Below are positions 1 through 42,137 of a stretch of 43,448 nt of DNA, one piece after another. The notes beneath the pieces are model-generated. The model had not been told where the DNA came from and did not search any database. It was given only the letters and a program-made list of their open reading frames with translations. This stretch comes from Methylococcaceae bacterium (lineage in GTDB: Bacteria > Pseudomonadota > Gammaproteobacteria > Methylococcales > Methylococcaceae): assembly GCA_028711365.1 (NCBI GenBank), contig JAQTSI010000002.1:1-43448 (forward strand), written 5' to 3'. The position numbers and the translations under genes are program-made. Each line of letters opens with the position of its first letter. Within the stretch, counting starts at the first letter, position 1.

Positions 1-262
1 CGAAGCCGCGCAGGATCATCACGATCAACACGCAGGAGTAGTGGGTGCCTGCCCAGACGGTGCCGGTGAACAGGTTGAACACCGCCCCACAAGCCCGACA
101 ACGGTAGTCCACCACCGGCGCGCGCGTACGCCGGTGCGGCGCCTGCGACGTGGGAAGGCAGTGCCCCAAGGGGCAGCAAAGCCTTTGAGGATGCAGAATG
201 TCCAGCAAATAGCGGTAACAGATTGCCTCATCGAGCAGCCCGGTCAGTGGAAAACGTATCAT
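1..262 (-). CDS. IS1595-family transposase, N-terminal zinc-ribbon part (partial CDS)
   Basis: The minus-strand ATG at 262-260 gives MIRFPLTGLLDEAICYRYLLDILHPQRLCCPLGH...VDYRCRACGAVFNLFTGTVWAGTHYSCVLIVMILRGF. This is a paralogue of the N-terminus of ORF 41744..42895 (MMRFPLSGLLDEQACYGYLLDILHPGGLCCPRGH...). It is absent from the ORF track because it runs off the window. Confidence 0.7.
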   Translation of the reverse strand, partial: MIRFPLTGLLDEAICYRYLLDILHPQRLCCPLGHCLPTSQAPHRRTRAPVVDYRCRACGAVFNLFTGTVWAGTHYSCVLIVMILRGF

Positions 263-338
263 GGGAACCTCCGCGTTTTCAGACCATTTTGGCAGAACGT
301 CACAGGAACGGCTTCACCAATTTCACGACATGAGCCAA
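1..338 (-). mobile_element. IS1595-family (ISXO2-like) insertion sequence, outer end plus 5' part only; continues beyond the window start
   Basis: nt 1-338 align colinearly, with scattered substitutions, to 42632-42974. Both copies end in GACATGAGCCAA, after which similarity stops. The segment contains the transposase start codon. Confidence 0.7.
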
Positions 339-451
339 CCGCCATAGCTTGCCCCCTTCGGGTTCGCCAGGAGGTAAAGTCCTCGCTCATTGGCGAGCTT
401 ATAGGGCTTGGGTTTCGGCTTGGCATTGCGGATCTGGATATTGTTCAGCAT
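339..451 (-). pseudogene. Remnant (first ~37 codons) of a P4-type tyrosine integrase (DUF4102 / arm-binding N-terminus), truncated by the IS1595-like insertion
   Basis: The minus-strand ATG at 451 gives MLNNIQIRNAKPKPKPYKLANERGLYLLANPKGASY. This matches the conserved I-R-N-A-K-P-x-x-K-P-Y-K-L-x-D-x-x-G-L-Y-L-L-V-x-P-x-G start of P4-like integrases. The reading frame runs into the IS end at 338/339 and stops. Confidence 0.65.
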
Positions 452-476
452 GGGGTCACCCCTCCTTGGGCGCTGG

Positions 477-547
477 TTGACGGTATCGGGTTGACGGTGC
501 CGCCACATACCGTCAAAGGTACCGTCAAAATTGACGGTATGTGGCGG
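477..547. repeat. Cluster of five TTGACGGT octamers (3 forward, 2 reverse), including a 17-bp perfect inverted repeat
   Basis: TTGACGGT occurs at 477-484, 491-498 and 531-538; ACCGTCAA occurs at 509-516 and 521-528. CCGCCACATACCGTCAA (500-516) is the exact reverse complement of 531-547. The cluster lies between the tRNA fragment and the integrase stump. Confidence 0.8.
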
Positions 548-649
548 TACCCTATGGCACCTCTTGGGACAGTAAAACGCACGAAAAAACCCGCCAAGCC
601 ATATAACTCGCGGGTTTCCATGTGTCCATTCGGGTGTTTCTCCGTTGAA

Positions 650-708
650 TTGGTACCGAGAGCCGGAATCGAACCGGCACGGTGTCACCACCGCCAGATT
701 TTGAGTCT
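650..708. repeat. attL: displaced 3' part of tRNA-Leu(CAA), left copy of a 59-bp perfect direct repeat
   Basis: 650-708 is identical to 9686-9744 (TTGGTACCGAGAGCCGGAATCGAACCGGCACGGTGTCACCACCGCCAGATTTTGAGTCT). The flanks diverge immediately outside the repeat. Confidence 0.9.
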
Positions 709-799
709 TACCCCAAACATTACCGTCTTGATTTCTTCAGATTACGGAAAATCACGGAAGCTTTACGGTTCAAGAGGTATAGCCTATCATTTGATTCAT

Positions 800-874
800 C
801 GGGCCACGCTTTCAAACCGTTTCGATTTCTCTCCAGCGTGGCCCCGGTGTGGCCCCATATTTTTTTGTGGCCCC
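800..874. repeat. Cluster of GTGGCCC(C) motifs between attL and int; candidate arm-type integrase binding sites; contains the left copy (825-855) of a 31-bp direct repeat
   Basis: AGCGTGGCCC occurs in reverse at 800-809, then forward motif copies at 835-845, 847-856 and 865-874. 825-855 (ATTTCTCTCCAGCGTGGCCCCGGTGTGGCCC) is identical to 9597-9627. Confidence 0.6.
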
Positions 875-898
875 GAACAAGTCTGATGTAATGAGGCT

Positions 899-2281
899 AT
901 GGCAACCCAAAACACCCTTCAACAATCCTCCCTTGAAGCCCTTCGGTTAGAGGCCATTGAAGCCATCCGGGCCGGAGATCTGGGCCACGTCACCGAGTTA
1001 ACCGAGCGCATGAAGGAAGCCGAGGCGATCTTGGCCAAACAGGCCAGGCCGAAGCGAGACCCACAAAAGGCCATCAATTTCACGAAAGGCGCGCTTGATG
1101 CGATCCCGATCCCCGCTCCTGGAAAACGCGAAACCTATCACGACACCAAGACGCCAGGCTTACAACTGCGGGTCACGGATACCGGAAGCAAAACATTCGT
1201 GGTGCGGCGGCGGGTGAGAAGCGGCAATGCCGAGCGTGTGACCTTGGGAACCTATCCGGCCATGACGCCGGAACAGGCGCGTAGAAGAGCTACCGAGGTT
1301 AATGCAGAAATTGCCCAAGGGATAAGTCCAACCACCGAGAAAAAGCGCATCAAACTGGCGGCCAGGACCTTGAGCGAGGTATTGGAAGAGTACATTCAGG
1401 TGCGCGGCAACCTGAAGGCTTCGACCGTGCGTGACATGCACCAGGCGTTGAAGGAGGTTTGCGGCGAATGGCTCAACAAGCCCTTGAACAAGATCACGCC
1501 GGCCATGCTGGAGGCCCGCCACCGCGAACACGCCACCCGATCCATGGCGCGCGCCAATGTCGCCATGCGTTACCTGCGGGCGCTGTTCAACTTCGCCATG
1601 GTGCGTTACCTGGATAGTGACGGCAATCCTTTGATCCTAGTCAATCCAGTATTGCGGTTATCGCGGCTGAAGCTTTGGCATCGTGTCGAAGGCAAGCAGA
1701 CCTTGATTAAGCCTTACGAACTGGCTGCGTGGTGGGCCGGGGTCGAAGGATTACCCGATACCGCCATGCGAGATTATTTCAAGCTGCTGGTATTGACCGG
1801 GCTTCGGCGCAATGAAGCCTTGTTCCTGCTATGGGAAAACGTCGATTTAATGTCGAGATCGATCACCATCAAGAACCCCAAGAACCACCGCGACTTGAAC
1901 TTGCCGTTGAGTGACTATCTATTTGAGCTATTGAATCGGCGCAAGGCCAGCGCCGTATCGGGCTATGTGTTTGCCTCGATTGACGGCAAACTGGTCGTGG
2001 ACACCCGATGGAATCAGAAAGCGATTACTCGGGCGTCTGGCGTGTCCTTCAGTCCGCATGATTGCCGCCGCACCTTCGCCACGATTGCCGAAAGCCTGGA
2101 TATTCCAGCCTATGCGCTTAAGCGGCTGCTTAATCACGCCAGCGGCGATGACGTGACGGCTGGGTATATCGTCGCAAGCGTGGAACGGCTGCGGGAGCCC
2201 ATGCAGAAAATCACCAATTACGTCTTGAAGGCAGCGGGAGTGAGAGAAACCGCCAGCATCCTGCGATTGAAACAGGGATGA
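899..2281 (+). CDS. int: Tyrosine-type site-specific integrase (P4-like, with DUF4102-like arm-binding region)
   Basis: 460-aa ORF. The N-terminal region contains TYHDTKTPGLQLRVTDTGSKTFVVRRR. The catalytic motifs are LTGLRRNEAL (Arg), HDCRRTFAT (H-x-x-R) and LLNHASGDDVTAGYI (His, Tyr). It is adjacent to attL. The start is uncertain because the ORF has a ~55-aa N-terminal extension. Confidence 0.9.
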   Translation: MATQNTLQQSSLEALRLEAIEAIRAGDLGHVTELTERMKEAEAILAKQARPKRDPQKAINFTKGALDAIPIPAPGKRETYHDTKTPGLQLRVTDTGSKTFVVRRRVRSGNAERVTLGTYPAMTPEQARRRATEVNAEIAQGISPTTEKKRIKLAARTLSEVLEEYIQVRGNLKASTVRDMHQALKEVCGEWLNKPLNKITPAMLEARHREHATRSMARANVAMRYLRALFNFAMVRYLDSDGNPLILVNPVLRLSRLKLWHRVEGKQTLIKPYELAAWWAGVEGLPDTAMRDYFKLLVLTGLRRNEALFLLWENVDLMSRSITIKNPKNHRDLNLPLSDYLFELLNRRKASAVSGYVFASIDGKLVVDTRWNQKAITRASGVSFSPHDCRRTFATIAESLDIPAYALKRLLNHASGDDVTAGYIVASVERLREPMQKITNYVLKAAGVRETASILRLKQG

Positions 2282-2290
2282 GGTGGAAGC

Positions 2291-2911
2291 ATGGCGACGC
2301 GCAAGAAAATATCGTTGTTAGATCTGGCATCTAGTAATTATTCTATATTCAGCGAGCCTATTGAATTTTCTAAGGAAGATGTTGCTGCTCTGGAAGGCTT
2401 TGGCGCGAATCAAGCGTTCATTGCCCGCTTGGCCCGTATAGCAGAATTTTTATGTGATGAAAATTTTCCGAAACCGCTTGGAATAGGCGAAAGAAATGAC
2501 GCGCTGAAGCAGTTTTGCAGTGATTGCTCCAATCTGGCGACAATATTATTTAACATACCGATAGAATTGAGGCATGCACTATTTCAGTGGCAACTTAGGG
2601 GCGGCGACTTCGAGGAATTGGCGTGTCAACTTCAAGATATGGCTGATGAGATTTCAGCAGTATTGGAATATGAGCCTCCCGATCCTAAGGAAGCTGGTGT
2701 CAAACTCCATAATGCTTCATGGGAGTGTGTGGCCGCCAAGCAAGTGTGCAAGCTGCTTCAAGAGCATGGTTTCCGTGTCGGTTATTCCGAAGGCGTCAAC
2801 GCCAAAACCCCCTCCCTCGCGCAAATCGCGCTTTCAATCGTCTTCCATTATGGCGGAAGAAACATCAACCCCATTCGATATATCAAAATGTTTTTGAAAG
2901 AAGAAATTTAA
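2291..2911 (+). CDS. Hypothetical protein, no recognisable motif; visibly AT-richer than its neighbours (cargo-like)
   Basis: 206-aa ORF starting 10 nt after the int stop. Its composition shifts to AT-rich codons. I recognise no family signature. Confidence 0.55.
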   Translation: MATRKKISLLDLASSNYSIFSEPIEFSKEDVAALEGFGANQAFIARLARIAEFLCDENFPKPLGIGERNDALKQFCSDCSNLATILFNIPIELRHALFQWQLRGGDFEELACQLQDMADEISAVLEYEPPDPKEAGVKLHNASWECVAAKQVCKLLQEHGFRVGYSEGVNAKTPSLAQIALSIVFHYGGRNINPIRYIKMFLKEEI

Positions 2912-2912
2912 C

Positions 2913-2980
2913 TGACAGGACCGCCCAAAAAATAGGGTGGGGTTGTCAGTACCGCCCGAAAAATAGGGTGGGGTGTCAGT
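2913..2980. repeat. About 2.2 tandem copies of a 30-31-bp unit upstream of the excisionase-type gene; candidate operator
   Basis: GACAGGACCGCCCAAAAAATAGGGTGGGGTT is followed by GTCAGTACCGCCCGAAAAATAGGGTGGGGT and then GTCAGT. Each unit contains the imperfect palindrome CCGCCC..GGGTGG. Confidence 0.75.
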
Positions 2981-3053
2981 TATTTTTTATCCGAAGGAAT
3001 GGGTAAATTACTCCCGAACACTTTGTTTAACCAACAAACTTCCGGAGTTACCC

Positions 3054-3332
3054 ATGAACCATCCCACCGCGCCTAGTGCGATTCTCCAAGCGCAATCCAC
3101 AGTACAAACCCCTTCCCAACAAATCGAATCCGCCATGGTTTCCGACATGGAAGCCGCGCGGATTCTTGGTCAAGCCCGGCGTACTCTCGCGGTTTGGCGG
3201 TGTACGGGCCGGTACAACCTGCCGTATGTCCGCATTGGCAGGAAAATTTTCTACCGGGTATCTGACCTGGAAGCCTTCATAAAACGCCGTGTCCATCATG
3301 GCCATCCAGATGCGGCCGGGGTGCAGGCATGA
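3054..3332 (+). CDS. Excisionase-family / AlpA-like helix-turn-helix DNA-binding protein
   Basis: 92 aa. The segment DMEAARILGQARRTLAVWRCTGRYNLPYVRIGRKIFYRVSDLEAFIKRR fits the HTH_17/excisionase pattern. A GGAG lies 7 nt upstream of the ATG at 3054. The longer ORF from 2973 starts inside the tandem repeat and is less likely. Confidence 0.7.
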   Translation: MNHPTAPSAILQAQSTVQTPSQQIESAMVSDMEAARILGQARRTLAVWRCTGRYNLPYVRIGRKIFYRVSDLEAFIKRRVHHGHPDAAGVQA

Positions 3333-3417
3333 AGAAGCCCGTTCCTGATGGCGTCAAACCCAGCCGGACCCATCGGCGCAGGAAGCGGACCTGGCAGCGG
3401 AGGCGCTCATGATCCGG

Positions 3418-3447
3418 TTGACAAACACAACCCGTCCAGGGAATACT
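3418..3447 (+). promoter_or_regulatory. Candidate sigma70-type promoter (TTGACA-N18-AATACT)
   Basis: There is a perfect -35 TTGACA at 3418-3423 and AATACT at 3442-3447. It lies in a 350-nt non-coding gap upstream of the small-ORF/replication operon. Confidence 0.35.
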
Positions 3448-3499
3448 TTAAACGCCCCGGACGCATCCGGGACTGGGCGTGAGAACCCGGTTAAGTTAA

Positions 3500-3533
3500 G
3501 GCGCACAAGCGCCAAACAGTGGGCGCTTTTTTT
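3500..3533 (+). terminator. Candidate intrinsic terminator with a competing upstream hairpin (attenuator-like)
   Basis: The sequence is GGCGC-ACAA-GCGCC-AAACAGTG-GGCGC-TTTTTTT. The central GCGCC (3509-3513) can pair either with the upstream GGCGC (3500-3504) or with the downstream GGCGC (3522-3526), which is followed by a T7 run. Confidence 0.4.
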
Positions 3534-3683
3534 GTGCCCGCTGCTTCATCATGGCGGCTTGGGCGGGGCAGGTTCGCGCCTGGCCGGTTCCTTAACGCCG
3601 GTTTCTCACCCCCGTTCAAGCCGTCACCCATTCGCTGTGAGAAGCGACCGTGACGGCTCCATTCACCTGTTAAGGAGCCATCC

Positions 3684-3953
3684 ATGAACACCCAAGCCAC
3701 GGGCGTAAACCGCCCAAAATCTGCCCTTTCCTTCGACCAGGCCGGCAAGATCGATCGCGGCATCCATCGCATCGCGATCGACATCGCTGAGCTGCTGACC
3801 TTCATCCACGATCTATCCGCCGATCATCCCGACCTTAACCGCGTGGCGCGGCGGTTATCGAGCGCATCCAAGCACCTGGAAGCCGCCAAGGACCCGGCGC
3901 GCCAGTTGTGGATCGACCGGAATGGCACCGCCGTCAAGGGAGGCCGGTCATGA
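3684..3953 (+). CDS. Hypothetical small protein (89 aa)
   Basis: An AAGGAG RBS lies 6 nt upstream of the ATG. The stop overlaps the next start (ATGA). The protein ends in AVKGGRS, as does the next ORF. Confidence 0.6.
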   Translation: MNTQATGVNRPKSALSFDQAGKIDRGIHRIAIDIAELLTFIHDLSADHPDLNRVARRLSSASKHLEAAKDPARQLWIDRNGTAVKGGRS

Positions 3954-4204
3954 TTAAAGAAATCAAGGCATTGGAACGCAAGGTCGAATGGATGCAAAAC
4001 ATCGCCTCTGCATTGTCGGCTGCCAACCTGGAGTTCGGCGAAATGCCAGACGGCGTGATTCGCTGTGATGAGTACACCATCCGAGCCATCTTCGACGGAT
4101 TTCGCGAAGAACTCTCAGGCATCTCCGCAGGGCTTTACCGTTTGTCGTTGGACGTAGCGGATAAGGCCAGGCCCGATGCCGCCGTCAAAGGAGGCCGGTC
4201 ATGA
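3950..4204 (+). CDS. Hypothetical small protein (84 aa)
   Basis: Start at the ATG at 3950 (MIKEIKALERK...), preceded by GGAGG inside the upstream gene. ATGA overlaps occur at both ends. The longer track ORF from 3908 overlaps the previous gene. Confidence 0.6.
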   Translation: MIKEIKALERKVEWMQNIASALSAANLEFGEMPDGVIRCDEYTIRAIFDGFREELSGISAGLYRLSLDVADKARPDAAVKGGRS

Positions 4205-4386
4205 GGCTGTACGGAATCTCACTGATAGACGATGACGGTTCCCGCATCACCCGTTTGATGTTCGTGGTGGACGGGAAGGTGCTGAAAATACCCCTGGCCG
4301 ATGTTCGGGCATCTGGGATGCTGGGGACACTGCCCGCTGATGATTTGGCTTTGGCCTATGTATGGCTGGCGAGGATGGACGTATGA
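4201..4386 (+). CDS. Hypothetical small protein (61 aa)
   Basis: ATGA-coupled to the upstream gene, with GGAGG 7 nt upstream. Confidence 0.5.
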   Translation: MRLYGISLIDDDGSRITRLMFVVDGKVLKIPLADVRASGMLGTLPADDLALAYVWLARMDV

Positions 4387-4416
4387 CCCAGACAGTCTCC
4401 AATCTGAAATTGGGGG

Positions 4417-4848
4417 GTGAACATGACACCCCATAGAAACGCGAAACCCCCGATGGCTGGCGGGCCGTCAGGGGCGGATGATTTCGAGAGACAGGCTAAT
4501 TCTATCAGCAAAAGGCCGTTGGCTCCCTATTCACGACGGCTGGATCCCGAGGCCCATAACAGCATCGCCGTCCTAACTGGCGATATGGCATGGGAGCGGG
4601 CGGTATCGCCTTCATGCTGGTTTCAGGGCGCGCGGCTATTGTTGCCGTTCGGCGAGAACCCCTCCCGATACACCTGGCCAGTATCGGGCCGGGATTGCAT
4701 TTTATTCAGTTTCGGAAAAGAGGAGCTTCATGAAACCTTGGTTCGCTTGAGTATGGAGCTGGTACAAGCCGGCGCCCTGTTCGTTATTTGGAACTTCGGA
4801 CCCAAGCCGGCGCTGGTATTCAGGGGGCAACAATGGATGCCAGTTTGA
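4417..4848 (+). CDS. Hypothetical protein (143 aa), coupled to the DUF3987 gene
   Basis: A G-rich RBS lies upstream. The 3' end overlaps the likely start (4833) of the next gene. I recognise no family. Confidence 0.55.
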   Translation: MNMTPHRNAKPPMAGGPSGADDFERQANSISKRPLAPYSRRLDPEAHNSIAVLTGDMAWERAVSPSCWFQGARLLLPFGENPSRYTWPVSGRDCILFSFGKEELHETLVRLSMELVQAGALFVIWNFGPKPALVFRGQQWMPV

Positions 4849-6440
4849 TTGCCACGGGTGTCAATGAATTCCTCGTCAAACCGAAAGACAGTAGTGTCGC
4901 GAGCGCAAAATCCAAGGCCACCAAGCCGGATGAAGGCATTGGCGCGGAACCTTGGGGCGATCCGGTCTTGTTTGGTACCGTGGCGGTTACTCCCGAAATC
5001 CAGTGCCACCTGCTTCCCGGGGTCTTTGGTGAGTACGCGGAGTGCCTGTCGCAGAACTTACAGACTCCTTCCGCGCTAGCAGTCATGACCGTGACGTCGA
5101 TTCTTTCAACGGCCTTGGCGCGGAAAGTCACCATTGGGCCTTGGCCGGATGATGGTTACTCTGAGCCGGTCAACGTGTGGACGCTAGCTGTCGCTGAGAG
5201 CGGTGAACGCAAGTCGCAAATTCTCGGGCGGTGTATGCGTCCGTTGGTTTTTTGGGAAAAGGAGCGAAGCCGGATGGAAAAGGCCGAGATTGAGGAAAAC
5301 GCATCTAAGCGCAAAGTCGCGGAACGTAGGGCTGACAAGCTTGAGGGTGAGGCCGCCAAAGAAGACGAAGATGAGCGCCGCGAGACGTTGACCAAGGAAG
5401 CGGCAAAGCTTCGGGCCGATCTGCCGGATGAACGGTTTCCGGTACAGATTTTCACCGGGGACGCGACGCCGGAGGCCGGGCAGGAATTGCTGGTGAAGGC
5501 GGGCGGAAGGATGGCTTTCATTAGTGATGAGCCTGGCTTGTTGCTAGTCATGGCGGGCGTCTATTCGGGCGGCGAGGCGATTCTTGACGTGTTCCTACAG
5601 GGTTACAGCGGGAATGACGTGCGAGGGAACCGCCGTTGCCGTTCGGCGATCATCGAACGGCCTGCCGTTACCTTAGGTCTGTCGATCCAGCCTGGCATCC
5701 TGTCGGACTTCCCGCAAGCGGCGAAGCGCAAGTTCCGAGCCTCCGGCCTGTTTGCCCGCTTCTTCCCCGTGTTCCCAAGGTCGAATATTGGACGGCGCGA
5801 CGTGCGGCGGCGGGTGTTGATTCCCGATGATCTGCAACGGGCGTATGACCGGGCTGTCATGGATTTGCTGGACTTTGAGCCGGACGGCGGCGAGGCGGTA
5901 CGCTTGGCCCTGGACGATGAGGCGCGGGAAGTCTGGCTTGATTTTGCCGACCAGATGGAGCGCGGACAGGCGGAAGGTGGCGATTACCAGGATATTCGCG
6001 ATTGGATTGCCAAGCTACCGGGCGGTGTGTTGCGGCTGGCAGGATTGTTCCATATGGCTGAATTCGGCAAGGATGGCGCAGGCAAACAGGTGAATGGGGA
6101 AACCATGGCTAGCGCGATTTTGTTGGCGCTTAACCTGATCGAACATGCGCGGGCGGTCTTCGGGTTGGTTGGGGCGGACAAGTCCATTGATGATGCCAAG
6201 TCGGTTTGGGCGTGGATCGAGCAAAGAAAGCTTCCCGGATTCTTGCGTTCTGAGGCCCATCGGAAATTCCATTCTCGGTTCGGCAAGGTGGAAGACCTGA
6301 TTGCAGCGCTGGAAGTCTTGAAAGGGCGAGAGTTGATACGCGGGCCGTACAAGTCGAAAGGTGAGAAGGGAGGCAGGCCCAGCGAAGGCTACCGGGTGAA
6401 CCCCATAGCCTTGGGCCTAGGCGATGGTAACTCCCTTTAA
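4833..6440 (+). CDS. DUF3987-type (YfjI-like) helicase-like replication protein of integrative elements
   Basis: The segment LPGVFGEYAECLSQNLQTPSALAVMTVTSILSTALARKV...VWTLAVAESGERKSQIL...FISDEPG matches the conserved DUF3987 core as I remember it. It includes a degenerate Walker-A-like SGERKS and a Walker-B-like ISDE. Start chosen at the ATG at 4833 (AGGGGG upstream); the track ORF begins at 4788. Confidence 0.6.
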   Translation: MDASLIATGVNEFLVKPKDSSVASAKSKATKPDEGIGAEPWGDPVLFGTVAVTPEIQCHLLPGVFGEYAECLSQNLQTPSALAVMTVTSILSTALARKVTIGPWPDDGYSEPVNVWTLAVAESGERKSQILGRCMRPLVFWEKERSRMEKAEIEENASKRKVAERRADKLEGEAAKEDEDERRETLTKEAAKLRADLPDERFPVQIFTGDATPEAGQELLVKAGGRMAFISDEPGLLLVMAGVYSGGEAILDVFLQGYSGNDVRGNRRCRSAIIERPAVTLGLSIQPGILSDFPQAAKRKFRASGLFARFFPVFPRSNIGRRDVRRRVLIPDDLQRAYDRAVMDLLDFEPDGGEAVRLALDDEAREVWLDFADQMERGQAEGGDYQDIRDWIAKLPGGVLRLAGLFHMAEFGKDGAGKQVNGETMASAILLALNLIEHARAVFGLVGADKSIDDAKSVWAWIEQRKLPGFLRSEAHRKFHSRFGKVEDLIAALEVLKGRELIRGPYKSKGEKGGRPSEGYRVNPIALGLGDGNSL

Positions 6441-6454
6441 TTGGCTGAATTGCT

Positions 6455-6737
6455 AAGAAGATATTTTTTAATACTATCTATCTATATGAAATAAAAGTCG
6501 TTGTTGTCTTCTGGCTGCTTCCTACGGGAAAAAAGGGAAAAAAGGGAAAAAACCCTGAACGAGGCAAATCATGCGCCAGCTTTCACGGGTTCGAAATTGG
6601 CGACCATGGGTTGAGGCTGATGTGTCCCATGGAGTCCGGGGAGTTTTTTACCTTTTTTCCCTAAATTCCCGTAGGTGTAGAGTTCTGGATCATGGGGAAG
6701 ATGGGGTTTTTTCCTTTTTTTCCCTTTTTTACCGTAG
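6455..6737. promoter_or_regulatory. Candidate replication origin: AT-rich stretch plus inverted arrays of GGGAAAAAA iterons
   Basis: There is an AT-rich run at 6455-6500. CCTACGGGAAAAAAGGGAAAAAAGGGAAAAAACC lies at 6521-6554. Reverse-orientation copies lie at 6638-6675 (..TTTTTTACCTTTTTTCCCTAAATTCCCGTAGG) and 6703-6737 (GGGGTTTTTTCCTTTTTTTCCCTTTTTTACCGTAG). The block sits directly downstream of the replication gene. Confidence 0.55.
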
Positions 6738-6846
6738 ATAAAGCGGTGCAAGCTTTTGGCTGGCTACTTTTCCAGGGTCCTTCCTTGGACCAATCAAAAG
6801 CGGGACGGAGGCTCGCGGTTTTTGCCTAGTTTGAATGATTTCAATT

Positions 6847-6871
6847 GGTTGCATGATAGGTTGCTGGTTGC
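6847..6871. repeat. Three direct GGTTGC repeats upstream of the capsid-module genes; candidate operator or activator site
   Basis: GGTTGC occurs at 6847-6852, 6859-6864 and 6866-6871. A TTGAAT (6831-6836) lies just upstream. Confidence 0.4.
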
Positions 6872-6889
6872 ATCCCCTTAACACGAGAC

Positions 6890-7156
6890 ATGTACATGAG
6901 AAAACTACCCGCTCCTTTTGGCATCTGCCCGGAATGCGCCCTCGATGAGCGCCAAACTTTTCCCGTTCCTGGCCTTCCTGGAACACTTCAATCGTACTGC
7001 CCGCACCACCAGGCCGGCGCTATGCTGAACCTATACGCCCCCCGTCCTCTGTGGACGATTTACACGCCGCTGAGCGCAGATGAATGGCAAGACCTGGTTG
7101 CCGACTCCTCAGTGACCCTGAGTCGTGCCTTGCAGCAAGGCGAGGTGAAGTACTGA
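6890..7156 (+). CDS. Hypothetical small protein (88 aa) with a CxxC...CxHH motif, possibly zinc-binding
   Basis: The ORF contains CPEC and CPHH motifs. Its stop overlaps the next start (ATGA at 7154-7158). Confidence 0.5.
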   Translation: MYMRKLPAPFGICPECALDERQTFPVPGLPGTLQSYCPHHQAGAMLNLYAPRPLWTIYTPLSADEWQDLVADSSVTLSRALQQGEVKY

Positions 7157-7581
7157 TGCAATCCCTGCTATTTAGACCGCAACCCAAACAGCGCAAGGCC
7201 CCGCCCGATCTTGCCGAGCTGGTCCTGGCGCTACGGGAGGGGCGACCGGTTCAGCAAGAGGCGCGGATACGGTTGTTGTTCGGCCTGGAAGACTGGATGC
7301 AATCCCCCGAGTTGTCGCTGGATACTGCCCTGGGGCTCAAGGGCACGCGTCAGCCGCGCGCCATTCGCGACGAAGCCCTGCGCCAGATGGCCAACTTGAT
7401 CCCCGGGTCAACGGATGCGAAGTGCCAGTGCATTCTGGGCGTCGTCGAACAAGCTCAACTGGCTGAGCCGCTTGGAGATGAGCCGCAGATTATGCGCCTG
7501 GCGAGGATGGCCTTGGCGAGTGGGTTGCGCATACCCGGAACTGTCCGTCGATTGCGCGACATCCTGGACGGCGCGAAGTAA
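7156..7581 (+). CDS. Hypothetical protein (141 aa) immediately upstream of the capsid gene
   Basis: The ATG at 7156 overlaps the upstream stop. I recognise no family. The track ORF from 7084 overlaps the previous gene. Confidence 0.55.
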   Translation: MQSLLFRPQPKQRKAPPDLAELVLALREGRPVQQEARIRLLFGLEDWMQSPELSLDTALGLKGTRQPRAIRDEALRQMANLIPGSTDAKCQCILGVVEQAQLAEPLGDEPQIMRLARMALASGLRIPGTVRRLRDILDGAK

Positions 7582-7648
7582 ATTTCTTCAGTTTTTCAGT
7601 TCAAAATCATGGGGTAATCTGTTCCTGAATCCATTTCAGGGGCAGCCC

Positions 7649-9469
7649 ATGACTCAAATTTCCTACCGCTTTGCCTTGCTGGGAAAGCCCGATACGGCAG
7701 CCCGCACCGTGGAAGCCAGCCTGGCATCCGAAGCCCCCACGTTGATCGACGGCTGGAACGAAATCCTTGACCTATCAACCGGCTCAGTAGACCTCACCCG
7801 GGCCCGTGACGGCTTGCCGTTGCTGTTTTGCCATAAGCCCGATCAACCCATCGGCATTGTTGAGAACGTCCGCCTCGAGAACCGCAAGCTACGGGGAACG
7901 CTGCGCTTTGGCACCAGCCCGAAGGCTGAAGAAATATGGGCCGATGTTGAAGCCGGCATCCTTCGAAATGTTTCCATTGGCTACCGCGTCCTGGCGACCA
8001 AGCCGGAGGGCAAGGGCGCTGTCCGCGTCACCCAGTTCGAATTGATGGAAGCTTCCATCGTGTCCCTGCCAGCCGATCCCAGTGTCGGGGTTGGCCGATC
8101 TTTTAATATGACCCATGAGAATTCAACTATGACTTCCAATACCGCAACCGATCCCGTCACTACTGAGCGTGAACGCTGTGCCGAGATTACCGGCATGTGC
8201 CAGGTTCATCGGGTCCCCGATGAAACCCGAGATGACATGATCCGAAACGGAACTCCCGTCGAAGAGGCCCGCGCCATCACCCTGGGCATCATGCAGCGCA
8301 GATACACGATTGAATCCGCTGCCGTCCACACGTTCACGCCCACCAGCGAAGGCATCGGCTTGAGCGAGCGCGAGGCCCGTCATTTCTCCATTGTCCGCGC
8401 GATCAATGCCGCCTGTTCGGGTGACTGGCGCGGGGCCGTCTTTGAGCGCGAATGCAGCGATCTGGTTTCCAAGCGCATCGGCCGCACCAGCCCGAACGGT
8501 TTCTTTGTACCCGTGGAGGCGCTATCGGTTCGGGCACCCTACAGCACCGGCGCCAGCGCCACCGGCGGCGCTTTGGTGGCCACCGAGTTGCGGGCGGAAG
8601 CCTTTGTTGACGTGCTGCGCAATCGCACCCAAGTCTTGAACATGGGCGCAACCTTGTTGCCAGGGCTGGTGGGCAATATCGACATCCCGCGCCGAACCGC
8701 ACCGACGCCGGCCTATTGGGTGACCGGCAACAATGACAACATCACCGAGGGCGAAGGCACCTTCGACAAGATCAGCCTGTCACCGAAAACCATTGGCGCT
8801 TTGAGCCAGTACAGCCGTAACATGCTGTTGCAGTCCACGCCCGCCATTGAATCCCTAGTGCGCAATGACTTGGCGATGGTATTGGCCCTGGGTGTGGATC
8901 TGGCCGCGATTGCCGGCACCGGAACGGCGAACCAGCCGCTGGGCATCCTCAACACGCCGGGCATCGGTAGCGTGGTGGGTGGCACCAACGGCGCGGCGCT
9001 CACCCTGGATCATCTGATCGCCCTGGCCAGTGCGGTCGAGCAGGCCAATGCCAACGGTCCTTCCAGCGGCTTCCTGTTGAACGCGGCATCTATCGCGGCC
9101 TTGAGCCGGCTCAAGAGTACGACGGGCCAATATCTGTGGGAGCGCGGCACCGACTCGCCGAGCTTTGGGCCCATCGCCGGCAAACCGGACACCGCGGGGA
9201 TGTTGAGCATCCTGGGATACCGTGCCGCAGTCACCAACCAGCTTCCGGCCAACCTGACCAAGGGCACCGGAACGGGTCTATCCGCCCTGATCTTCGGCAA
9301 CTGGGCCGATCTGATCATCGGCGAATGGGGCGTGCTGGAAATCATCGCCAATCCTTATGGCAGCGGGTTCGCATCGGGCAGCGTCCAGATTCGCGCCATG
9401 CAATCCCTGGATATTGGCGTGCGACATGCGGCTTCCTTCGCCGTCATGTCCGATGCGATCACCGTGTAA
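7649..9469 (+). CDS. Fusion protein: HK97-family prohead serine protease (Peptidase_S78/U35-like) plus linker plus HK97-fold major capsid protein
   Basis: The N-terminal ~150 aa carries LPLLFCHKPDQPIG (His62), NVSIGYRV (Ser109) and ELMEASIVSLPADP, typical of HK97 gp4-type proteases. The C-terminal part carries GGALVATELRAEAFVDVLRNRTQVLNMGATLL...TFDKISLSPKTIGALSQYSRNMLLQS...LAAIAGTGTANQPLGILN, typical of Phage_capsid (HK97 family). There is no stop between the domains. Start chosen at 7649 (AGGGG upstream); the track ORF from 7415 overlaps the preceding gene. Confidence 0.85.
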   Translation: MTQISYRFALLGKPDTAARTVEASLASEAPTLIDGWNEILDLSTGSVDLTRARDGLPLLFCHKPDQPIGIVENVRLENRKLRGTLRFGTSPKAEEIWADVEAGILRNVSIGYRVLATKPEGKGAVRVTQFELMEASIVSLPADPSVGVGRSFNMTHENSTMTSNTATDPVTTERERCAEITGMCQVHRVPDETRDDMIRNGTPVEEARAITLGIMQRRYTIESAAVHTFTPTSEGIGLSEREARHFSIVRAINAACSGDWRGAVFERECSDLVSKRIGRTSPNGFFVPVEALSVRAPYSTGASATGGALVATELRAEAFVDVLRNRTQVLNMGATLLPGLVGNIDIPRRTAPTPAYWVTGNNDNITEGEGTFDKISLSPKTIGALSQYSRNMLLQSTPAIESLVRNDLAMVLALGVDLAAIAGTGTANQPLGILNTPGIGSVVGGTNGAALTLDHLIALASAVEQANANGPSSGFLLNAASIAALSRLKSTTGQYLWERGTDSPSFGPIAGKPDTAGMLSILGYRAAVTNQLPANLTKGTGTGLSALIFGNWADLIIGEWGVLEIIANPYGSGFASGSVQIRAMQSLDIGVRHAASFAVMSDAITV

Positions 9470-9551
9470 CGATTTGCTTCCTGCGGGAAAACCGCCTATC
9501 GGGCGTGGCGGATAAATAACCACCGGCGTGTTCTCTCGGGAACACAACACG

Positions 9552-9587
9552 GCCCTTCCCTTTGGTTCCTGGGGAAGGGCTTTTTTA
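9552..9587 (+). terminator. Rho-independent terminator after the capsid gene
   Basis: The GCCCTTCCC (9552-9560) / GGGAAGGGC (9572-9580) stem is followed by TTTTTT. Confidence 0.75.
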
Positions 9588-9596
9588 TTGCCTTCT

Positions 9597-9627
9597 ATTT
9601 CTCTCCAGCGTGGCCCCGGTGTGGCCC
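9597..9627. repeat. Right copy of the 31-bp direct repeat (candidate arm-type integrase site, opposite arm)
   Basis: Identical to 825-855. It lies 58 nt inside attR, whereas the left copy lies 116 nt inside attL. In the excised circle the two copies would flank the att core. Confidence 0.6.
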
Positions 9628-9640
9628 GAAAATTTCGGGC

Positions 9641-9685
9641 AAAATAAAAAGGGCTTGCCAATAACAGGCAAGCCCTTGTTTTTTC
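9641..9685. terminator. Bidirectional intrinsic terminator between the element end and the tRNA 3' end
   Basis: The sequence is an A-run, GGGCTTGCC (9651-9659), a 7-nt loop, GGCAAGCCC (9667-9675), then a T-run. Confidence 0.7.
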
Positions 9686-9744
9686 TTGGTACCGAGAGCC
9701 GGAATCGAACCGGCACGGTGTCACCACCGCCAGATTTTGAGTCT
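9686..9744. repeat. attR: right copy of the 59-bp direct repeat, forming the 3' part of the intact tRNA-Leu
   Basis: Identical to 650-708. Confidence 0.9.
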
Positions 9745-9773
9745 GGTGCGTCTACCAGTTTCGCCATCTCGGC
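9687..9773 (-). tRNA. tRNA-Leu (anticodon CAA)
   Basis: The minus strand reads GCCGAGATGGCGAAACTGGTAGACGCACCAGACTCAAAATCTGGCGGTGGTGACACCGTGCCGGTTCGATTCCGGCTCTCGGTACCA. It has a 7-bp acceptor stem (G1:U72), anticodon loop CTCAAAA, a long variable arm, T-loop GGTTCGATTCC and an encoded CCA. Confidence 0.9.
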
Positions 9774-9864
9774 CTTTCAGATGACAATATGATAACGAAT
9801 ATTTGACACAAACGCTAGATGTCCCGGTATGATTTTCTCCCGGTCGACTGACTACCCATCCATC

Positions 9865-10896: not shown

Positions 10897-12018
10897 CTGG
10901 ATGGCGTTGATTCCCCATGGGATGGACAGGGTGTAAAGCCCGATCATCGCCAGCATGGCGAGGTTTTCGAATAGATTCTGTATAGCCACGGCGTGGCCGG
11001 CGCCCACGGTTTCATGGCCTCTCTCCTGCAACAAGGCGTTGAGGGGCACCACGAACAGGCCGCCACACAAGCCGATCACCGCCAACAGTAGCGCGGCTTC
11101 CATCAATCCGGTTGCCCTCATCAGTGCAATGATCACGGGTCCCAGCAACAGGCCGGGAAGCAGCACCCGGTTCACCGTGTCCAAGCGGATCCACATCGAA
11201 GCCAGCGCCGCACCTAAGGCGATGCCTACGGCCACCGCGGCATTGAGGTTGGCCGGGGTGCTGGTATCGTTCAGTTCCAATGCCAGGGGAGTCCAGGCCA
11301 CCAGCAATAGACGCAGGGTCGCACCGGTTCCCCAGAATAGGCTGGTGCAAGCCAGGGAAAAGCGGACATCGCGATCTTTGATCAGGGCCCAACTCGCCTG
11401 AACGAAATCCACGATCAGCGCGCGGGGATCGAGCCCCTCTCCGGGATGGACCGCCGGCAGCTTCGGAATCGCCAAATTCGCCAGCATGGCGACGGTATAA
11501 CAACCGAGCACGCTCCACAGGGCCAGATCGATGGATCGGTCCGCCAGCCAGCCGCCGGAACCGACACCGAGCAGGATGGCGACGATGGTGGAGCCTTCCA
11601 TCATGCTGTTGACTTTGACCAGTCGGTCGGGCCCTACCAACTCGGACAGGATGCCGTATTTAGCTGGGGAATAGGCTGCCGCTCCAATTCCTACCAGCCC
11701 ATAGGCGAGCAACGGATGAGCTCCCGCCAGCATCGCCCCTGCGCCGAAGAATTTCAGTCCGTTGGATAGCAGCATGACGCGACCTTTAGGCAGGGCGTCG
11801 GCGAAAGGTCCGGCGAATGGCGCCAATACCACAAAAGCCAACACGAAGAATTCCTGCAACAACGGAACCCATTCCTCGGGACGATGCTGCGATCGCACCA
11901 GGGCGATGGCCGCGAACAGCAATGCGTTATCGGCCAGGGCAGAGAGGAATTGGGCGATCAGAACGGCGGCCAATGCGCGTCCAGGAGGAGTAGGGGATGA
12001 GATGTGAATGTCCGGCAT
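10816..12018 (-). CDS. lplT: Lysophospholipid transporter LplT (MFS)
   Basis: AQFLSALADNALLFAAIALV, PFAGPFADALPKGRVMLLSNGLKFFGA and GAAAYSPAKYGILSE closely parallel E. coli LplT. Confidence 0.8.
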   Translation of the reverse strand: MPDIHISSPTPPGRALAAVLIAQFLSALADNALLFAAIALVRSQHRPEEWVPLLQEFFVLAFVVLAPFAGPFADALPKGRVMLLSNGLKFFGAGAMLAGAHPLLAYGLVGIGAAAYSPAKYGILSELVGPDRLVKVNSMMEGSTIVAILLGVGSGGWLADRSIDLALWSVLGCYTVAMLANLAIPKLPAVHPGEGLDPRALIVDFVQASWALIKDRDVRFSLACTSLFWGTGATLRLLLVAWTPLALELNDTSTPANLNAAVAVGIALGAALASMWIRLDTVNRVLLPGLLLGPVIIALMRATGLMEAALLLAVIGLCGGLFVVPLNALLQERGHETVGAGHAVAIQNLFENLAMLAMIGLYTLSIPWGINAIQSGTLFGGMVLAGLAILSAVRLFYRAV

Positions 12019-12027
12019 AAATTATGA

Positions 12028-20223: not shown

Positions 20224-20476
20224 TTCCCCCCAACATTTTTCGTCCTCCCCAAATGTTTTGGGGGACGCACAAAAACATTTCCCCCGCTCCCAGGAACTTT
20301 TAAGGGACTCCCTAAAACTTTTTCCCTGCTCCCCAAAACTTTTAGGGGGCTCCCCGAGACATTTTCCCCATTCCCAAAAACTTTTAGGGGACTCCCCAAG
20401 ACTTTTTCCGCTCTCCCCGAAGGCTTTGGGGAACGCCCTAATGTTTTTTCCGCCTTCCCTGGAATTTTCGGGGATT
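20224..20476. repeat. Tandem array: 6 copies of a 42-bp unit; each unit is two related 21-mers, one CCCC..CCCC type and one palindromic CCCC..GGGG type
   Basis: Palindromic half-units start at 20245, 20287, 20329, 20371, 20413 and 20455, with an exact 42-bp period (e.g. CTCCCCAAAACTTTTAGGGGG). They alternate with units such as CTCCCCGAGACATTTTCCCCA. ORFs are open on both strands across the array. Confidence 0.85.
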
Positions 20477-40995: not shown

Positions 40996-41181
40996 ACAGT
41001 CAGATTTCCATGCCAGACGCAGCGCCAGAAACCTATGATAACTTTACACGACTGAGCCTTGTCGATCGGCGCCGGGTGACGACTCGGCATCAAGAAGCGC
41101 CGCCAAAAACGAGAAAAAAACAAATGGACTCAGGAAACCATCAGACGACTGGAAAACGAAGCCATCGTGGGAGGTAATCAG

Positions 41182-41454
41182 ATGAAGGATCAAGCCGCCA
41201 TAGCGGATAAAGAGCATGAACGGGCGGAATCCGCCATCAAAGACAGAGAAAACGCGCGCGTCGCCGAACAAGCCGTGCAAGCCCGACTGGAAAGCGCAGC
41301 CCGGGAACTGGAAGCCCTGAAAGAGACCGCCAGCGAAGCGAGACAAGCCGAAAAGAAAGCCCTGGAAGAAGCCGCCCTGTTACGTGGTAAGCTGGAAGCA
41401 CTCACAAAGCCCGAACCCAAAACCACCCACAAAGCCAAAAAGGTAACGACATGA
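41182..41454 (+). CDS. Hypothetical coiled-coil protein (90 aa, E/A/K-rich)
   Basis: GGAGG lies 8 nt upstream of the ATG at 41182. The stop overlaps the next start (ATGA). Confidence 0.5.
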   Translation: MKDQAAIADKEHERAESAIKDRENARVAEQAVQARLESAARELEALKETASEARQAEKKALEEAALLRGKLEALTKPEPKTTHKAKKVTT

Positions 41455-41696
41455 CCGAAAACGTTGAAAACCTAATCCTCGAACACCTCAGACACATCCG
41501 GCGCCGCGTGGATGAAATCGCAGAAGACATGAAAGACGTAAAGCAACGATTACACATCTTAGAAGACGGCCAAACCATCACACGACGTGAGGTATTGCTA
41601 AACGAAGAGACCAGTTCAAGACAGCAAATAAGCATCGATAGAATCCTCAACCGCCTAGAACGCGTTGAAAGACGACTAGACATCATCAACGAATAA
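41451..41696 (+). CDS. Hypothetical coiled-coil protein (81 aa)
   Basis: It is translationally coupled to the previous ORF and followed by a strong terminator. Confidence 0.5.
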   Translation: MTENVENLILEHLRHIRRRVDEIAEDMKDVKQRLHILEDGQTITRREVLLNEETSSRQQISIDRILNRLERVERRLDIINE

Positions 41697-41725
41697 AAAA
41701 AGCCGGGGCAACCCGGCTTTTTATT
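41694..41725. terminator. Bidirectional intrinsic terminator
   Basis: AAAAAAA-AGCCGGG-GCAA-CCCGGCT-TTTTATT, between convergent ORFs. Confidence 0.8.
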
Positions 41726-41743
41726 ATCGAAGGAAAACCCAAG

Positions 41744-42137
41744 TCACTTACCCAAAGGACTCAGATCAGCCAATGTACGAAGCTGAGGATTGCGCTTGGG
41801 TCCGGAATACGCGGTGACCCGTTTTCCATCAACTGTGCACTCTAAATCATAACCCCAGCCAGTACACCTTGCAGGATCAATACGACGACGCCAACCGGTT
41901 GATGATTCAGCAACAATAAAACGAACACGATCGATCTCGCCCTGTCCTGATATACGCCAATCATCCGAATAAGGCAGGGATTGCGGAGGAGAAGGTACAG
42001 ACGGAACTGAAGGAATTGAAGCGGGAGGGGAATCAGGAACAGCGACAGGAGCAGGAACAGGCTCGGAAACCGATGCGTTAACAGCAGGGGAAGACGGCTT
42101 GTTATTATGACGCGTGAAAAAACCGACGACGCTCCAT
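41744..42137 (-). pseudogene. 3' part of an unknown gene (Pro/Ser-rich linker plus ~80-aa C-terminal domain), now fused in frame to the truncated IS1595 transposase
   Basis: Within ORF 41744..42895 the transposase homology ends at ..ARDDDGDGI (about nt 42137) and composition drops from GC-rich to AT-richer. The remainder has no start codon of its own. Confidence 0.5.

Follow-up and report, generated by a model that had tools for sequence, protein, structure and literature searches.

A tRNA-Leu-integrated element of satellite type with a protease-capsid fusion as its sole recognisable virion gene in a Methylococcaceae bacterium

A 43,448-nt stretch of DNA from a Methylococcaceae bacterium (contig JAQTSI010000002.1; hereafter the window) contains a compact element integrated at a tRNA-Leu(CAA) gene, whose sole recognisable virion gene encodes a fusion of a prohead protease, a scaffold segment and an HK97-type major capsid protein (MCP). 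By its sequence organisation the element is intact, integrative, replicative and of satellite type, and we consider that it is probably, though far from certainly, a helper-dependent phage satellite of the same functional type as P4 and the phage-inducible chromosomal islands (PICIs). The original prediction had described a satellite-type element with a single virion gene and not a decayed prophage, which agrees with our analysis. It had also proposed a new class matching none known; this part does not stand, as precedents are found in the cos-type Staphylococcus aureus pathogenicity islands (SaPIs) with their capsid homologue Ccm, in MCP-type tycheposons and in the 'twilight' HK97 elements. 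Positions are window coordinates (Table 1) unless a locus code (L followed by a number) is given.

Relatives of the capsid fusion were fetched as 80 genome loci and 80 IMG/VR loci. In 129 fetched loci, portal and TerL queries located a portal gene upstream of the capsid gene, and the large terminase gene (terL) as well wherever the contig reaches that far. The annotated phages of this capsid type, Mica and CRP-811, have the order small terminase gene (terS), terL, a small gene, lambda-family portal gene and capsid fusion; the phage relatives carry lambda-type Nu1/GpA terminases, enzymes that cut at cos sites, in genomes of 42-44 kb, and a cos site is predicted for Mica by PhageTerm. From the neighbour-gene clusters of the 129 phage loci we built 43 custom hidden Markov models (HMMs) for portal, TerL, two TerS types, connectors, tape measure and others. 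Neither these models nor Pfam, PHROGs and NCBIfam detected a portal, TerL, TerS, connector or tail homologue within 600-9800 (none at E < 0.01), and alignment of each small open reading frame (ORF) with TerS and connector profiles by hhalign gave probabilities that were all below 20%. No lysis gene was detectable in the element, whose PHROG and Pfam matches are limited to integrase, excisionase-type, DNA-helicase and head/protease families. As the 43 custom HMMs found no match in the element, the statement that it has no recognisable portal, terminase or tail gene holds; sensitive profile searches had been named with the original prediction as the test that could overturn it.

The only tRNA that ARAGORN calls in the window is a minus-strand tRNA-Leu(CAA) (9687-9773), in agreement with Rfam. 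A perfect 59-bp direct repeat, which spans tRNA position 30 to the 3′ end plus one base and includes the anticodon loop, brackets the element with a start-to-start spacing of 9,036 bp. The right copy restores a complete tRNA gene and the left one duplicates part of it, as is typical of site-specific integration. The predicted 9,036-bp bracket, the predicted gene order (reproduced by ORF calls with Pfam, PHROGs and NCBIfam matches) and the two predicted terminators after the capsid gene, both of which fold well, were all recovered. Two mechanical ORFs, 41-886 (+) and 323-691 (-), cross attL and the partial tRNA and are almost certainly no genes. An imperfect 43-nt repeat lies inside both element ends (821-863 and 9593-9635, 91% identical), and exact GTGGCCCC has four matches in the 43-kb window, all inside the two repeat arms; in an excised circle, the 43-nt copies would sit on either side of the core. 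Because these repeats are confined to both arms and the integrase has an Arm-DNA-bind_3 domain, we read 821-874 and 9593-9635 as candidate arm-type binding sites of the integrase.

The element is one of a recurrent family, as more than 15 related tRNA-flanked islands carry the fusion capsid gene. The portal-less loci with enough flank are L001, L002, L004, L005, L010-L012, L026, L040, L045, L047, L062, L070, L169, L173 and L176-L178. Their common plan is a tRNA, an integrase, optional cargo, an AlpA/HTH_17 gene, a replication module of variable type (DUF3987, Toprim+DUF3987, AAA_25 or DnaB), small ORFs and the fusion capsid gene at or near the island end, with one or two genes after it in some islands; L176 matches the window nearly gene for gene. 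A Pfam scan of 148 ORFs from 14 islands returned capsid 14 times and S78 12 times, along with families for integrase, HTH_17/AlpA and replication. Among the 25 most frequent of the 33 families found there is none for portal or terminase, and the custom portal and TerL HMMs gave no match. Only the capsid gene is conserved throughout the islands. Its homologues reside mostly in full head modules behind portal and terminase genes (55/84 genome loci and nearly all IMG/VR loci).

Whether such islands always have this size and always lack portal and terminase had been asked with the original prediction. Six islands with long att repeats (46-59 bp) measure 9,036, 8,559, 9,291, 8,822, 9,403 and 9,736 bp, so that a size of 8.6-9.7 kb holds for them. 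The islands are likewise portal-less, but several encode a small terminase, and 'capsid-only' does not describe the family, since sister islands frequently encode a small terminase or a tape-measure-like protein as well. Small-terminase genes were recognised in L004, L005, L062, L173, L010 and L177 (phage TerS clusters, phrog_57 or Phage_Nu1); the match in L010 is clear (2e-46), and L004, L005, L062, L173 and L177 encode a TerS-like HTH/coiled-coil protein of ~200 aa upstream of the 88-aa ORF (o88) described below. A tape-measure-like gene follows the capsid gene in L040 (10890-12908; phrogs 8462 and 9483) and probably in L002, where it is a contig-end fragment (11864-12027), and an unannotated 821-aa ORF lies directly after the capsid gene in L178 (7949-10414). 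In L177, a gene with a Pfam GP38 match (6560-7126) follows the capsid gene. In Synechococcus sp. AG-670-B23, an 8.6-kb island (L026 5878-14485; tRNA-Ala, 49-bp att repeat) encodes a fusion MCP 40% identical to that of the window with a linker of only 90 aa and is probably an MCP-type tycheposon; the window integrase and replication protein have no BLAST-level match in L026. Paralogous 422-425-aa ORFs (L026 12986-14263 and 14623-15891) lie on either side of its right att copy; if these are integrases, they would suggest tandem islands.

The capsid genes of the islands are maintained and not debris, as judged from their low dN/dS (~0.1-0.3 between island capsid genes) and from H62 and S109 within the protease match, which are invariant across 43 homologues. 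The scaffold linker of the window protein is 155 aa long versus a phage median of 196 aa, and just 2.8% of phage homologues have one that short; the median of the presumed linker is 170 aa in islands versus 196 aa in phages (Mann-Whitney p = 1e-5, a statistic that ignores phylogeny). A neighbour-joining tree built from 134 capsid proteins places that of the window in an island-only clade with L001, L002, L004, L005 and L062. The other island clades are scattered among phage clades, which indicates that the island lifestyle is old or has arisen more than once. Identity between capsid proteins of islands and phages is 42-47%.

The small protein o88, of zinc-binding type, is encoded upstream of the capsid gene. 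An exhaustive HMMER search gave 44 matches, ~35 of them small proteins of 75-116 aa, and the family has the invariant residues C13-x2-C16, C37-x-H39 and W55. The AlphaFold2 (AF2) model of o88 (pLDDT 89.5) has no fold match in PDB or BFVD at E < 0.1, and no Pfam family matches the protein. When the o88 HMM was searched against six-frame translations of all fetched loci, matches were confined to portal-less loci and always ended within ~500 bp upstream of the MCP gene, and 0/129 phage loci were matched. Three homologues looked up independently each precede a capsid fusion, in HTH_17/AAA_25 islands. On these distributions, o88 is an island-specific signature gene linked to the capsid gene. It may help to express or assemble the satellite shell; a likeness to the Ogr/Delta zinc fingers is only an idea. 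Between o88 and the capsid gene lies o141, an orphan all-helical protein, for which a GC content at third codon positions (GC3) of 0.73 supports coding. It has no homologue in 5.8e9 proteins and no PHROG, Pfam or PADLOC match, and its single-sequence AF2 model (pLDDT 62.6) is too weak for a fold search. It may be a packaging or assembly factor. We also tried o141 as a TerS and set this assignment aside, given the lack of homologues and of a PHROG match and the weak model.

Candidate helper evidence comes from Nitrosospira sp. Nsp11, which holds both an island (L002/L006; L002 is FRBV01000017) and a prophage with a related head module (L013, FRBV01000012, identical to IMG/VR locus L120). Their capsid proteins are 42% identical. 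A 62-bp segment is 100% identical between L002 9334-9395 and L013 5307-5368; it is non-coding in the island, where it lies 52 bp upstream of the o88 gene, and in the prophage it ends at the terS start codon. The segment contains the palindrome CGCGAATTTCGCG, and a conserved AAAAGGTACTT box is located 16-17 bp upstream in both loci. In lambda-like phages, cos lies directly upstream of terS. Island and prophage of Nsp11 are thus candidates for a satellite and its helper that have a cos site or a late promoter in common, and either reading would imply that the island depends on that phage. The first 164 bp of the gene after the island capsid gene (L002 11864-12027) are 97% identical to a gene of the Nsp11 prophage. 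Both contigs stop there, which points to an assembly break induced by a repeat.

The leader of the replication operon, described in the original prediction as 350 nt of structured sequence, is indeed structured and can now be identified as a C4-type antisense RNA preceded by an isrK-like hairpin/terminator. The Rfam covariance model of C4 is matched over its full length (model positions 1-87/87), and the RNA folds with -46 kcal/mol (z -5.2), leaving two segments single-stranded, the loop 3589-3596 and the stretch 3603-3609. The latter has exact complements in the first box, and the former in the second box, of both an upstream and a downstream target pair (Table 1). The downstream box GTTAAGGA overlaps the Shine-Dalgarno sequence of the ORF starting at 3684, the preceding sequence being ...gttaaggagccatccATG. 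An 'ORF' spanning the leader has a flat GC1/GC2/GC3 profile, unlike the other small ORFs of the element. Promoter-like sites in this region are not more numerous than the shuffled expectation, and the site at 3418-3447 is a consensus match only. Phage P1 has a C4 RNA with a1b1/a2b2 complementary boxes in its c4/immI system, and satellite P4 has CI RNA immunity with seqA/seqC boxes. By analogy with these systems, C4 may keep the operon from the 89-aa ORF to the DUF3987 gene silent when the element is integrated. C4 and isrK were not found in 19 other loci (18 related island loci and the Nsp11 prophage L013). Three sister islands have an int-alpA RNA motif (RF02996; L004 4696-4763, L005 1761-1829 and L070 14038-14102), which in L004 and L005 takes the position of the tandem 31-nt repeat of the window; this motif has no match in the window.

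Within the operon, the original prediction of four small ORFs joined by ATGA overlaps applies to three (o89, o84 and o61; GC3 0.64-0.77, supporting coding), but the fourth (o143) has a GTG start after a 30-nt gap. The GC1/GC2/GC3 profile supports coding for all small ORFs of the element. The 89-, 84- and 61-aa ORFs matched no family in Pfam, PHROGs, PADLOC or NCBIfam; a faint PADLOC JetA match of the 89-aa ORF (E 0.008) was regarded as chance. A 26-nt repeat (3928-3953 and 4179-4204) carries a ribosome-binding site plus ATGA at both ORF junctions and may be a duplicated coupling cassette; because of it, the 89- and 84-aa ORFs both end in AVKGGRS. The DUF3987 protein likely starts at the ATG at 4833 and shares 47% identity with the Toprim+DUF3987 protein encoded by island L001. 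The predicted iteron/AT-rich block was located directly, as three copies of GGGAAAAAA at 6526-6552 and two inverted copies of ~34 nt at 6640-6675 and 6703-6737. PICI origins lie directly downstream of the replication gene, and the iteron block adjoins the 3′ side of the replication gene in the same position, so that by analogy it may act as the origin.

In the left part of the element, the orphan 206-aa ORF has a GC content of 0.45 and a GC3 of 0.45 versus ~0.58 and ~0.7 in its neighbours, and no match in Pfam, PHROGs, PADLOC or NCBIfam; the PADLOC defence search gave nothing credible either for this ORF or for the small ORFs of the element. It sits in the int-alpA interval, which is an accessory-gene hotspot in P4-like elements and PICIs, and is probably cargo. 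The tandem 31-nt repeat behind it may be an operator, and the likely start of the HTH_17 protein is the ATG at 3054, which gives 92 aa. The flanking genes of the element are housekeeping genes for a CDF transporter, MFS transporters, a pseudouridine synthase, HemN and RapA, the last of which is 76% identical to that of Ca. Methylumidiphilus (Methylococcaceae) and 58-68% identical to those of other Methylococcaceae; on this basis the host is probably a gammaproteobacterial methanotroph not in culture. An IS1595/ISXO2-like transposase ORF lies in the flank at 41744-42895 (-); next to it (41001-43000), base composition shifts sharply, with an AT skew of +0.415 at 41-42 kb and a GC content of 0.67 at 42-43 kb. 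A tandem array of a CTCCCCAAAACTTTTAGGGGA-like unit at 20245-20418 (period 42 or 21, ~4-5 copies, 62-75% matches), in an intergenic stretch with a low GC content of 0.52, is unrelated to the island.

Table 1. Features of the element in window coordinates
Feature	Position	Strand	Evidence or remark
attL	650..708	n/a	partial tRNA-Leu(CAA) 3′ copy, 59-bp core repeat
Candidate arm-type integrase sites, int-proximal arm	821..874	+	43-nt repeat and three GTGGCCCC copies
Tyrosine integrase, 460 aa	899..2281	+	Arm-DNA-bind_3 2.4e-18, Phage_integrase 1.2e-16, phrog_1 6.8e-56
Orphan 206-aa ORF	2291..2911	+	low GC
Tandem 31-nt repeat, 2.1 copies	2913..2980	+	between probable cargo ORF and xis-like gene
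Excisionase/AlpA-like HTH_17 protein	2973..3332	+	HTH_17 6.5e-9, phrog_66 9.7e-6
Promoter-like site TTGACA-18-AATACT	3418..3447	+	10/12 consensus matches
isrK-like leader RNA with intrinsic terminator 3507-3528	3454..3533	+	RF01394 33.5 bits, below gathering score 50
Upstream C4 target pair	3479-3485 GTGAGAA, 3495-3501 GTTAAGG	+	complementarity; inside isrK-like leader
C4-type antisense RNA	3547..3631	+	RF01695, 70.4 bits vs gathering score 45, E 7.7e-12
Downstream C4 target pair	3637-3643 GTGAGAA, 3669-3676 GTTAAGGA	+	exact complementarity
Three coupled small ORFs, 89, 84 and 61 aa	3684-3953, 3950-4204, 4201-4386	+	ATGA overlaps
143-aa ORF, GTG start	4417..4848	+	overlaps replication gene start; no Pfam/PHROGs family
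DUF3987 replicative helicase-type protein	4788..6440	+	DUF3987 6e-83; phrog_2373 'DNA helicase' 3.8e-52
ori-like iteron block	6521..6737	n/a	phased A-tract 9-mers and inverted copies
o88, 88-aa zinc-binding-type protein (CxxC...CxH)	6890..7156	+	upstream of capsid gene
o141, orphan 141-aa all-helical protein	7156..7581	+	start overlaps o88 stop (TGATG)
Peptidase_S78 - scaffold linker - HK97 MCP fusion, 606 aa	7649..9469	+	profile matches: Phage_capsid 4.1e-44, Peptidase_S78 5e-9, phrog_617 6.5e-126, TIGR01554 1.6e-38
Intrinsic terminator 1, 3′ of capsid gene	9551..9581	+	-20.8 kcal/mol, z -3.35; T-run to ~9589
Second 43-nt arm repeat, int-distal attP arm	9593..9635	+	repeat search
Bidirectional intrinsic terminator 2	9649..9677	n/a	-20.9 kcal/mol, z -5.0
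attR core	9686..9744	n/a	within intact tRNA-Leu(CAA) gene 9687-9773 (-)

The favoured satellite reading would work as follows. In the integrated state, C4 RNA would be processed from the leader transcript and pair with the two target boxes, masking the Shine-Dalgarno sequence of the first ORF of the o89-o84-o61-o143-DUF3987 operon. This would keep replication and late functions repressed, in the manner of P1 immI and P4 CI. Induction of, or infection by, a helper would lead to excision by Int and the HTH_17 protein and to replication from the iteron origin, followed by expression of o88, o141 and the polyprotein. The latter would supply protease, scaffold and shell in a single product, its short scaffold segment favouring a shell large enough for one 9-kb genome but too small for the ~40-kb genome of the helper. 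The o88 protein would be an accessory factor, specific to the family, that aids expression or assembly of the capsid. A helper whose lambda-like head module belongs to the same capsid family would contribute portal, terminase, head-completion proteins and tail.

Several points weigh against this reading. Excision, replication, expression and packaging of the element are deduced from its sequence, and the case for excision, shell formation and packaging is built on its anatomy, on comparison within the family and on the precedent of SaPIbov5. No helper phage is present in the window, where the flanks hold housekeeping genes plus the IS1595-type transposase, nor was one for the window element found elsewhere. 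Neither a cos or pac site nor a TerS could be recognised in the element, two candidate 27-mers upstream of o88 have no match in IMG/VR, and no non-coding similarity was found between the element and ~170 fetched loci. The 62-bp identity in Nsp11 could reflect a late promoter and not cos, and it concerns a relative and not the window element. The linker-length comparison takes no account of phylogeny, and the role given to C4 is drawn from P1 and P4 only, since the module was found in none of the sister islands scanned. Finally, island-type loci are essentially absent among the IMG/VR matches, which may be a detection bias but gives encapsidation no positive support; the IMG/VR contigs, nearly all true phage fragments, have no terminal repeats and include no circular or direct-terminal-repeat (DTR) copies of an island.

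An unlikely alternative is that interference comes first, the island capsid protein co-assembling with or poisoning the helper capsid to redirect its size or block the helper, and not building the whole shell itself. The gene would then act mainly against phage or in size redirection, and the island would be packaged in mixed or helper-derived capsids. The Ccm protein of SaPIbov5 targets helper gp33 and cannot form capsids alone (PMC5052747), island and phage capsid proteins at 42-47% identity are perhaps close enough for co-assembly, and the island linker is the shorter one. However, unlike Ccm, the window protein has kept a full-length capsid domain and a complete S78 protease with invariant H62 and S109, so that it has everything for an autonomous shell, and the narrow island size range of 8.6-9.7 kb fits a dedicated small shell. 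That the element instead travels as multimers in normal helper-sized capsids, its capsid gene being dispensable for transfer and either a relic or in other use, seems improbable to us. Such packaging as concatemers without capsid remodelling is known from VEIMEs (PMC9618062) and PICMIs (PMC10803314), and 9 kb is ~1/4 to 1/5 of the 42-44-kb phage genomes of this capsid type; yet VEIMEs and PICMIs encode no MCP, whereas the island capsid gene is conserved across islands and under purifying selection. The lambda-type Nu1/GpA terminases of the phage relatives and the cos site predicted for Mica also speak against multimers.

We give very little credence to the remaining two explanations. A decayed prophage would have left an int-rep-capsid remnant of a full-size temperate phage, and the prevalence of full head modules among genome and IMG/VR loci would suit this origin. 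The att repeat is perfect and all ORFs are intact, however, hosts that are not related share this compact layout and size, the island capsids form separate clades under purifying selection, o88 is a signature gene specific to islands, and their replication modules (DUF3987, Toprim, AAA_25) are of satellite type; the rejection of decay in the original prediction is upheld on these grounds. It is equally hard to credit a helper-independent tailless entity, whether a mobilisable compartment of encapsulin type or a 'mini virus' that lacks a portal and has Rep package its DNA, although elements of 5-11.6 kb with HK97 MCP, integrase and Rep but without portal or tail have been so interpreted (bioRxiv 10.1101/2025.06.18.659913). 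The window protein belongs to Phage_capsid/TIGR01554 with a fused S78 prohead protease and matches no encapsulin family, and it has no cargo-type neighbour; encapsulins are Linocin_M18-type shells with an adjacent cargo enzyme and no maturation protease. The encapsulin-like alternative raised in the original prediction therefore finds no support. No packaging ATPase is present in the element either, and the terS of sister islands together with the 62-bp helper-identical segment beside the helper terS points to terminase-driven packaging.

Extending the satellite reading to the family as a whole, we propose tentatively, and with rather less than even confidence, that the islands are widespread, undescribed proteobacterial satellites in which the polyprotein and o88 suffice to specify a satellite-sized shell on a stolen portal, while terminase, connectors and tail are hijacked via a copied cos or a satellite terS; the window member would be governed by C4, and the family would be a missing intermediate between PICIs, which take over the capsid, and capsid-forming PICIs (cf-PICIs), which take over the tail only. 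A full-text literature search of incomplete coverage, by which novelty is not established, returned no description of the proteobacterial protease-MCP and o88 family, nor did we find described the complete self-maturing polyprotein, the island-specific zinc-binding partner gene or the C4 RNA immunity. If the proposal is true, a minimal one-gene strategy of shell plus maturation protease stands between whole-capsid theft (P4, PICI, PLE) and the building of a whole head (cf-PICI), and satellites extend to groups with few examples, namely methanotrophs, ammonia oxidisers (Nitrosospira) and Thiomonas. The o88 zinc-binding family can be used as a search marker for islands, and Nsp11 is a named strain with a candidate satellite-helper pair that has a 62-bp site in common. 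For nanocontainer engineering, the fused polyprotein may offer a small, compact HK97 shell that matures by itself, and 'phage major capsid protein' annotations outside prophages need not mark debris.

Among known systems, the 'twilight' HK97 elements, which range over 5-11.6 kb without portal or tail (bioRxiv 10.1101/2025.06.18.659913), share with the window element an HK97 MCP, an integrase, replication genes and the lack of portal, terminase and tail, and their dominant clade has a mean size of 8.9 kb (Aguilar et al., 2025). They are human-gut DTR contigs with encapsulin-like MCP domains and a separate scaffold, whereas the window element encodes a classical Phage_capsid protein with a fused S78 protease and is integrated in a proteobacterial chromosome. 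'PICI-like tycheposons' carry MCP or terS (bioRxiv 10.1101/2020.12.28.424599), and the window element has the make-up of the MCP-type tycheposons of Prochlorococcus/Synechococcus, with tRNA-flanked partial repeats, a tyrosine recombinase, a primase/helicase and a single packaging-type gene. This likeness is one of gene content as described, and the Synechococcus island L026 shares the homologous fusion MCP; the hosts differ, no o88 was found in L026, and the C4 module is specific to the window.

P4 resembles the window element in its integration at tRNA-Leu and its self-replicating helicase-type protein, which is P4 alpha in P4 and of DUF3987 type in the window. Like P4 and the immI system of P1, the element has a structured RNA from the leader of the replication operon with boxes up- and downstream, a resemblance that is functional only. 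P4 lacks a capsid gene; it has psu, delta and epsilon and uses Sid, an external scaffold, to resize P2 capsids. Of these four genes, the searches of the element with PHROGs and Pfam found none. PICMIs, at ~5.5 kb, have no capsid-remodelling genes, which we read as no capsid gene (PMC10803314), unlike the 9-kb window element with its capsid gene. Set against the classical PICI model, whose five core components are int, a regulator, pri-rep, terS and one for capsid morphogenesis and of which members with fewer are also reported, the element has int, a regulator, pri-rep and a capsid-type gene but no terS. With cf-PICIs such as EcCIEDL933, it shares its own HK97 capsid protein and prohead protease and a left half of int, alpA-like and pri-rep genes, and some cf-PICIs (Firmicutes variants) have merged protease and capsid components (PMC10085698). 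The cf-PICIs also have portal, head-tail adaptor, connector, terS, terL and HNH genes at a median of 14 kb, whereas the 9-kb window element has no detectable portal, terL, terS or connector. The cf-PICI model of SatelliteFinder requires at least 9/11 core components; the window element has at most 5/11, comprising int, an alpA-type regulator and pri-rep together with capsid and prohead protease.

The closest characterised analogue of the window element is the cos-type SaPI (SaPIbov4/SaPIbov5). SaPIbov5 carries the HK97-fold capsid homologue Ccm as its sole capsid-type gene together with a copy of the helper cos; Ccm, whose delta domain is 44 aa shorter than that of the helper, blocks the helper and directs assembly of small capsids (PMC5052747). 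There is no relation between the gene families or the hosts (Staphylococcus versus Proteobacteria), and Ccm, ~19% identical to the helper capsid protein, lacks a protease and forms no capsids alone, whereas the window gene encodes a complete polyprotein 42-47% identical to its phage homologues; Stl controls an island of ~14 kb in the former, and C4 RNA would control one of ~9 kb in the latter. Both are nevertheless integrative, self-replicating islands in which an HK97-fold capsid homologue is the sole capsid-type gene. In both, the delta or scaffold region is shortened, which for the window is read from the sequence of its linker (155 aa versus the phage median of 196), and, like the cos-type SaPIs, the window element would have no functional terS of its own and need the helper terminase. 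Finally, the copy of the helper cos in SaPIbov5 may have a counterpart in the Nsp11 sister island, which carries the helper-identical 62 bp found upstream of the helper terS.

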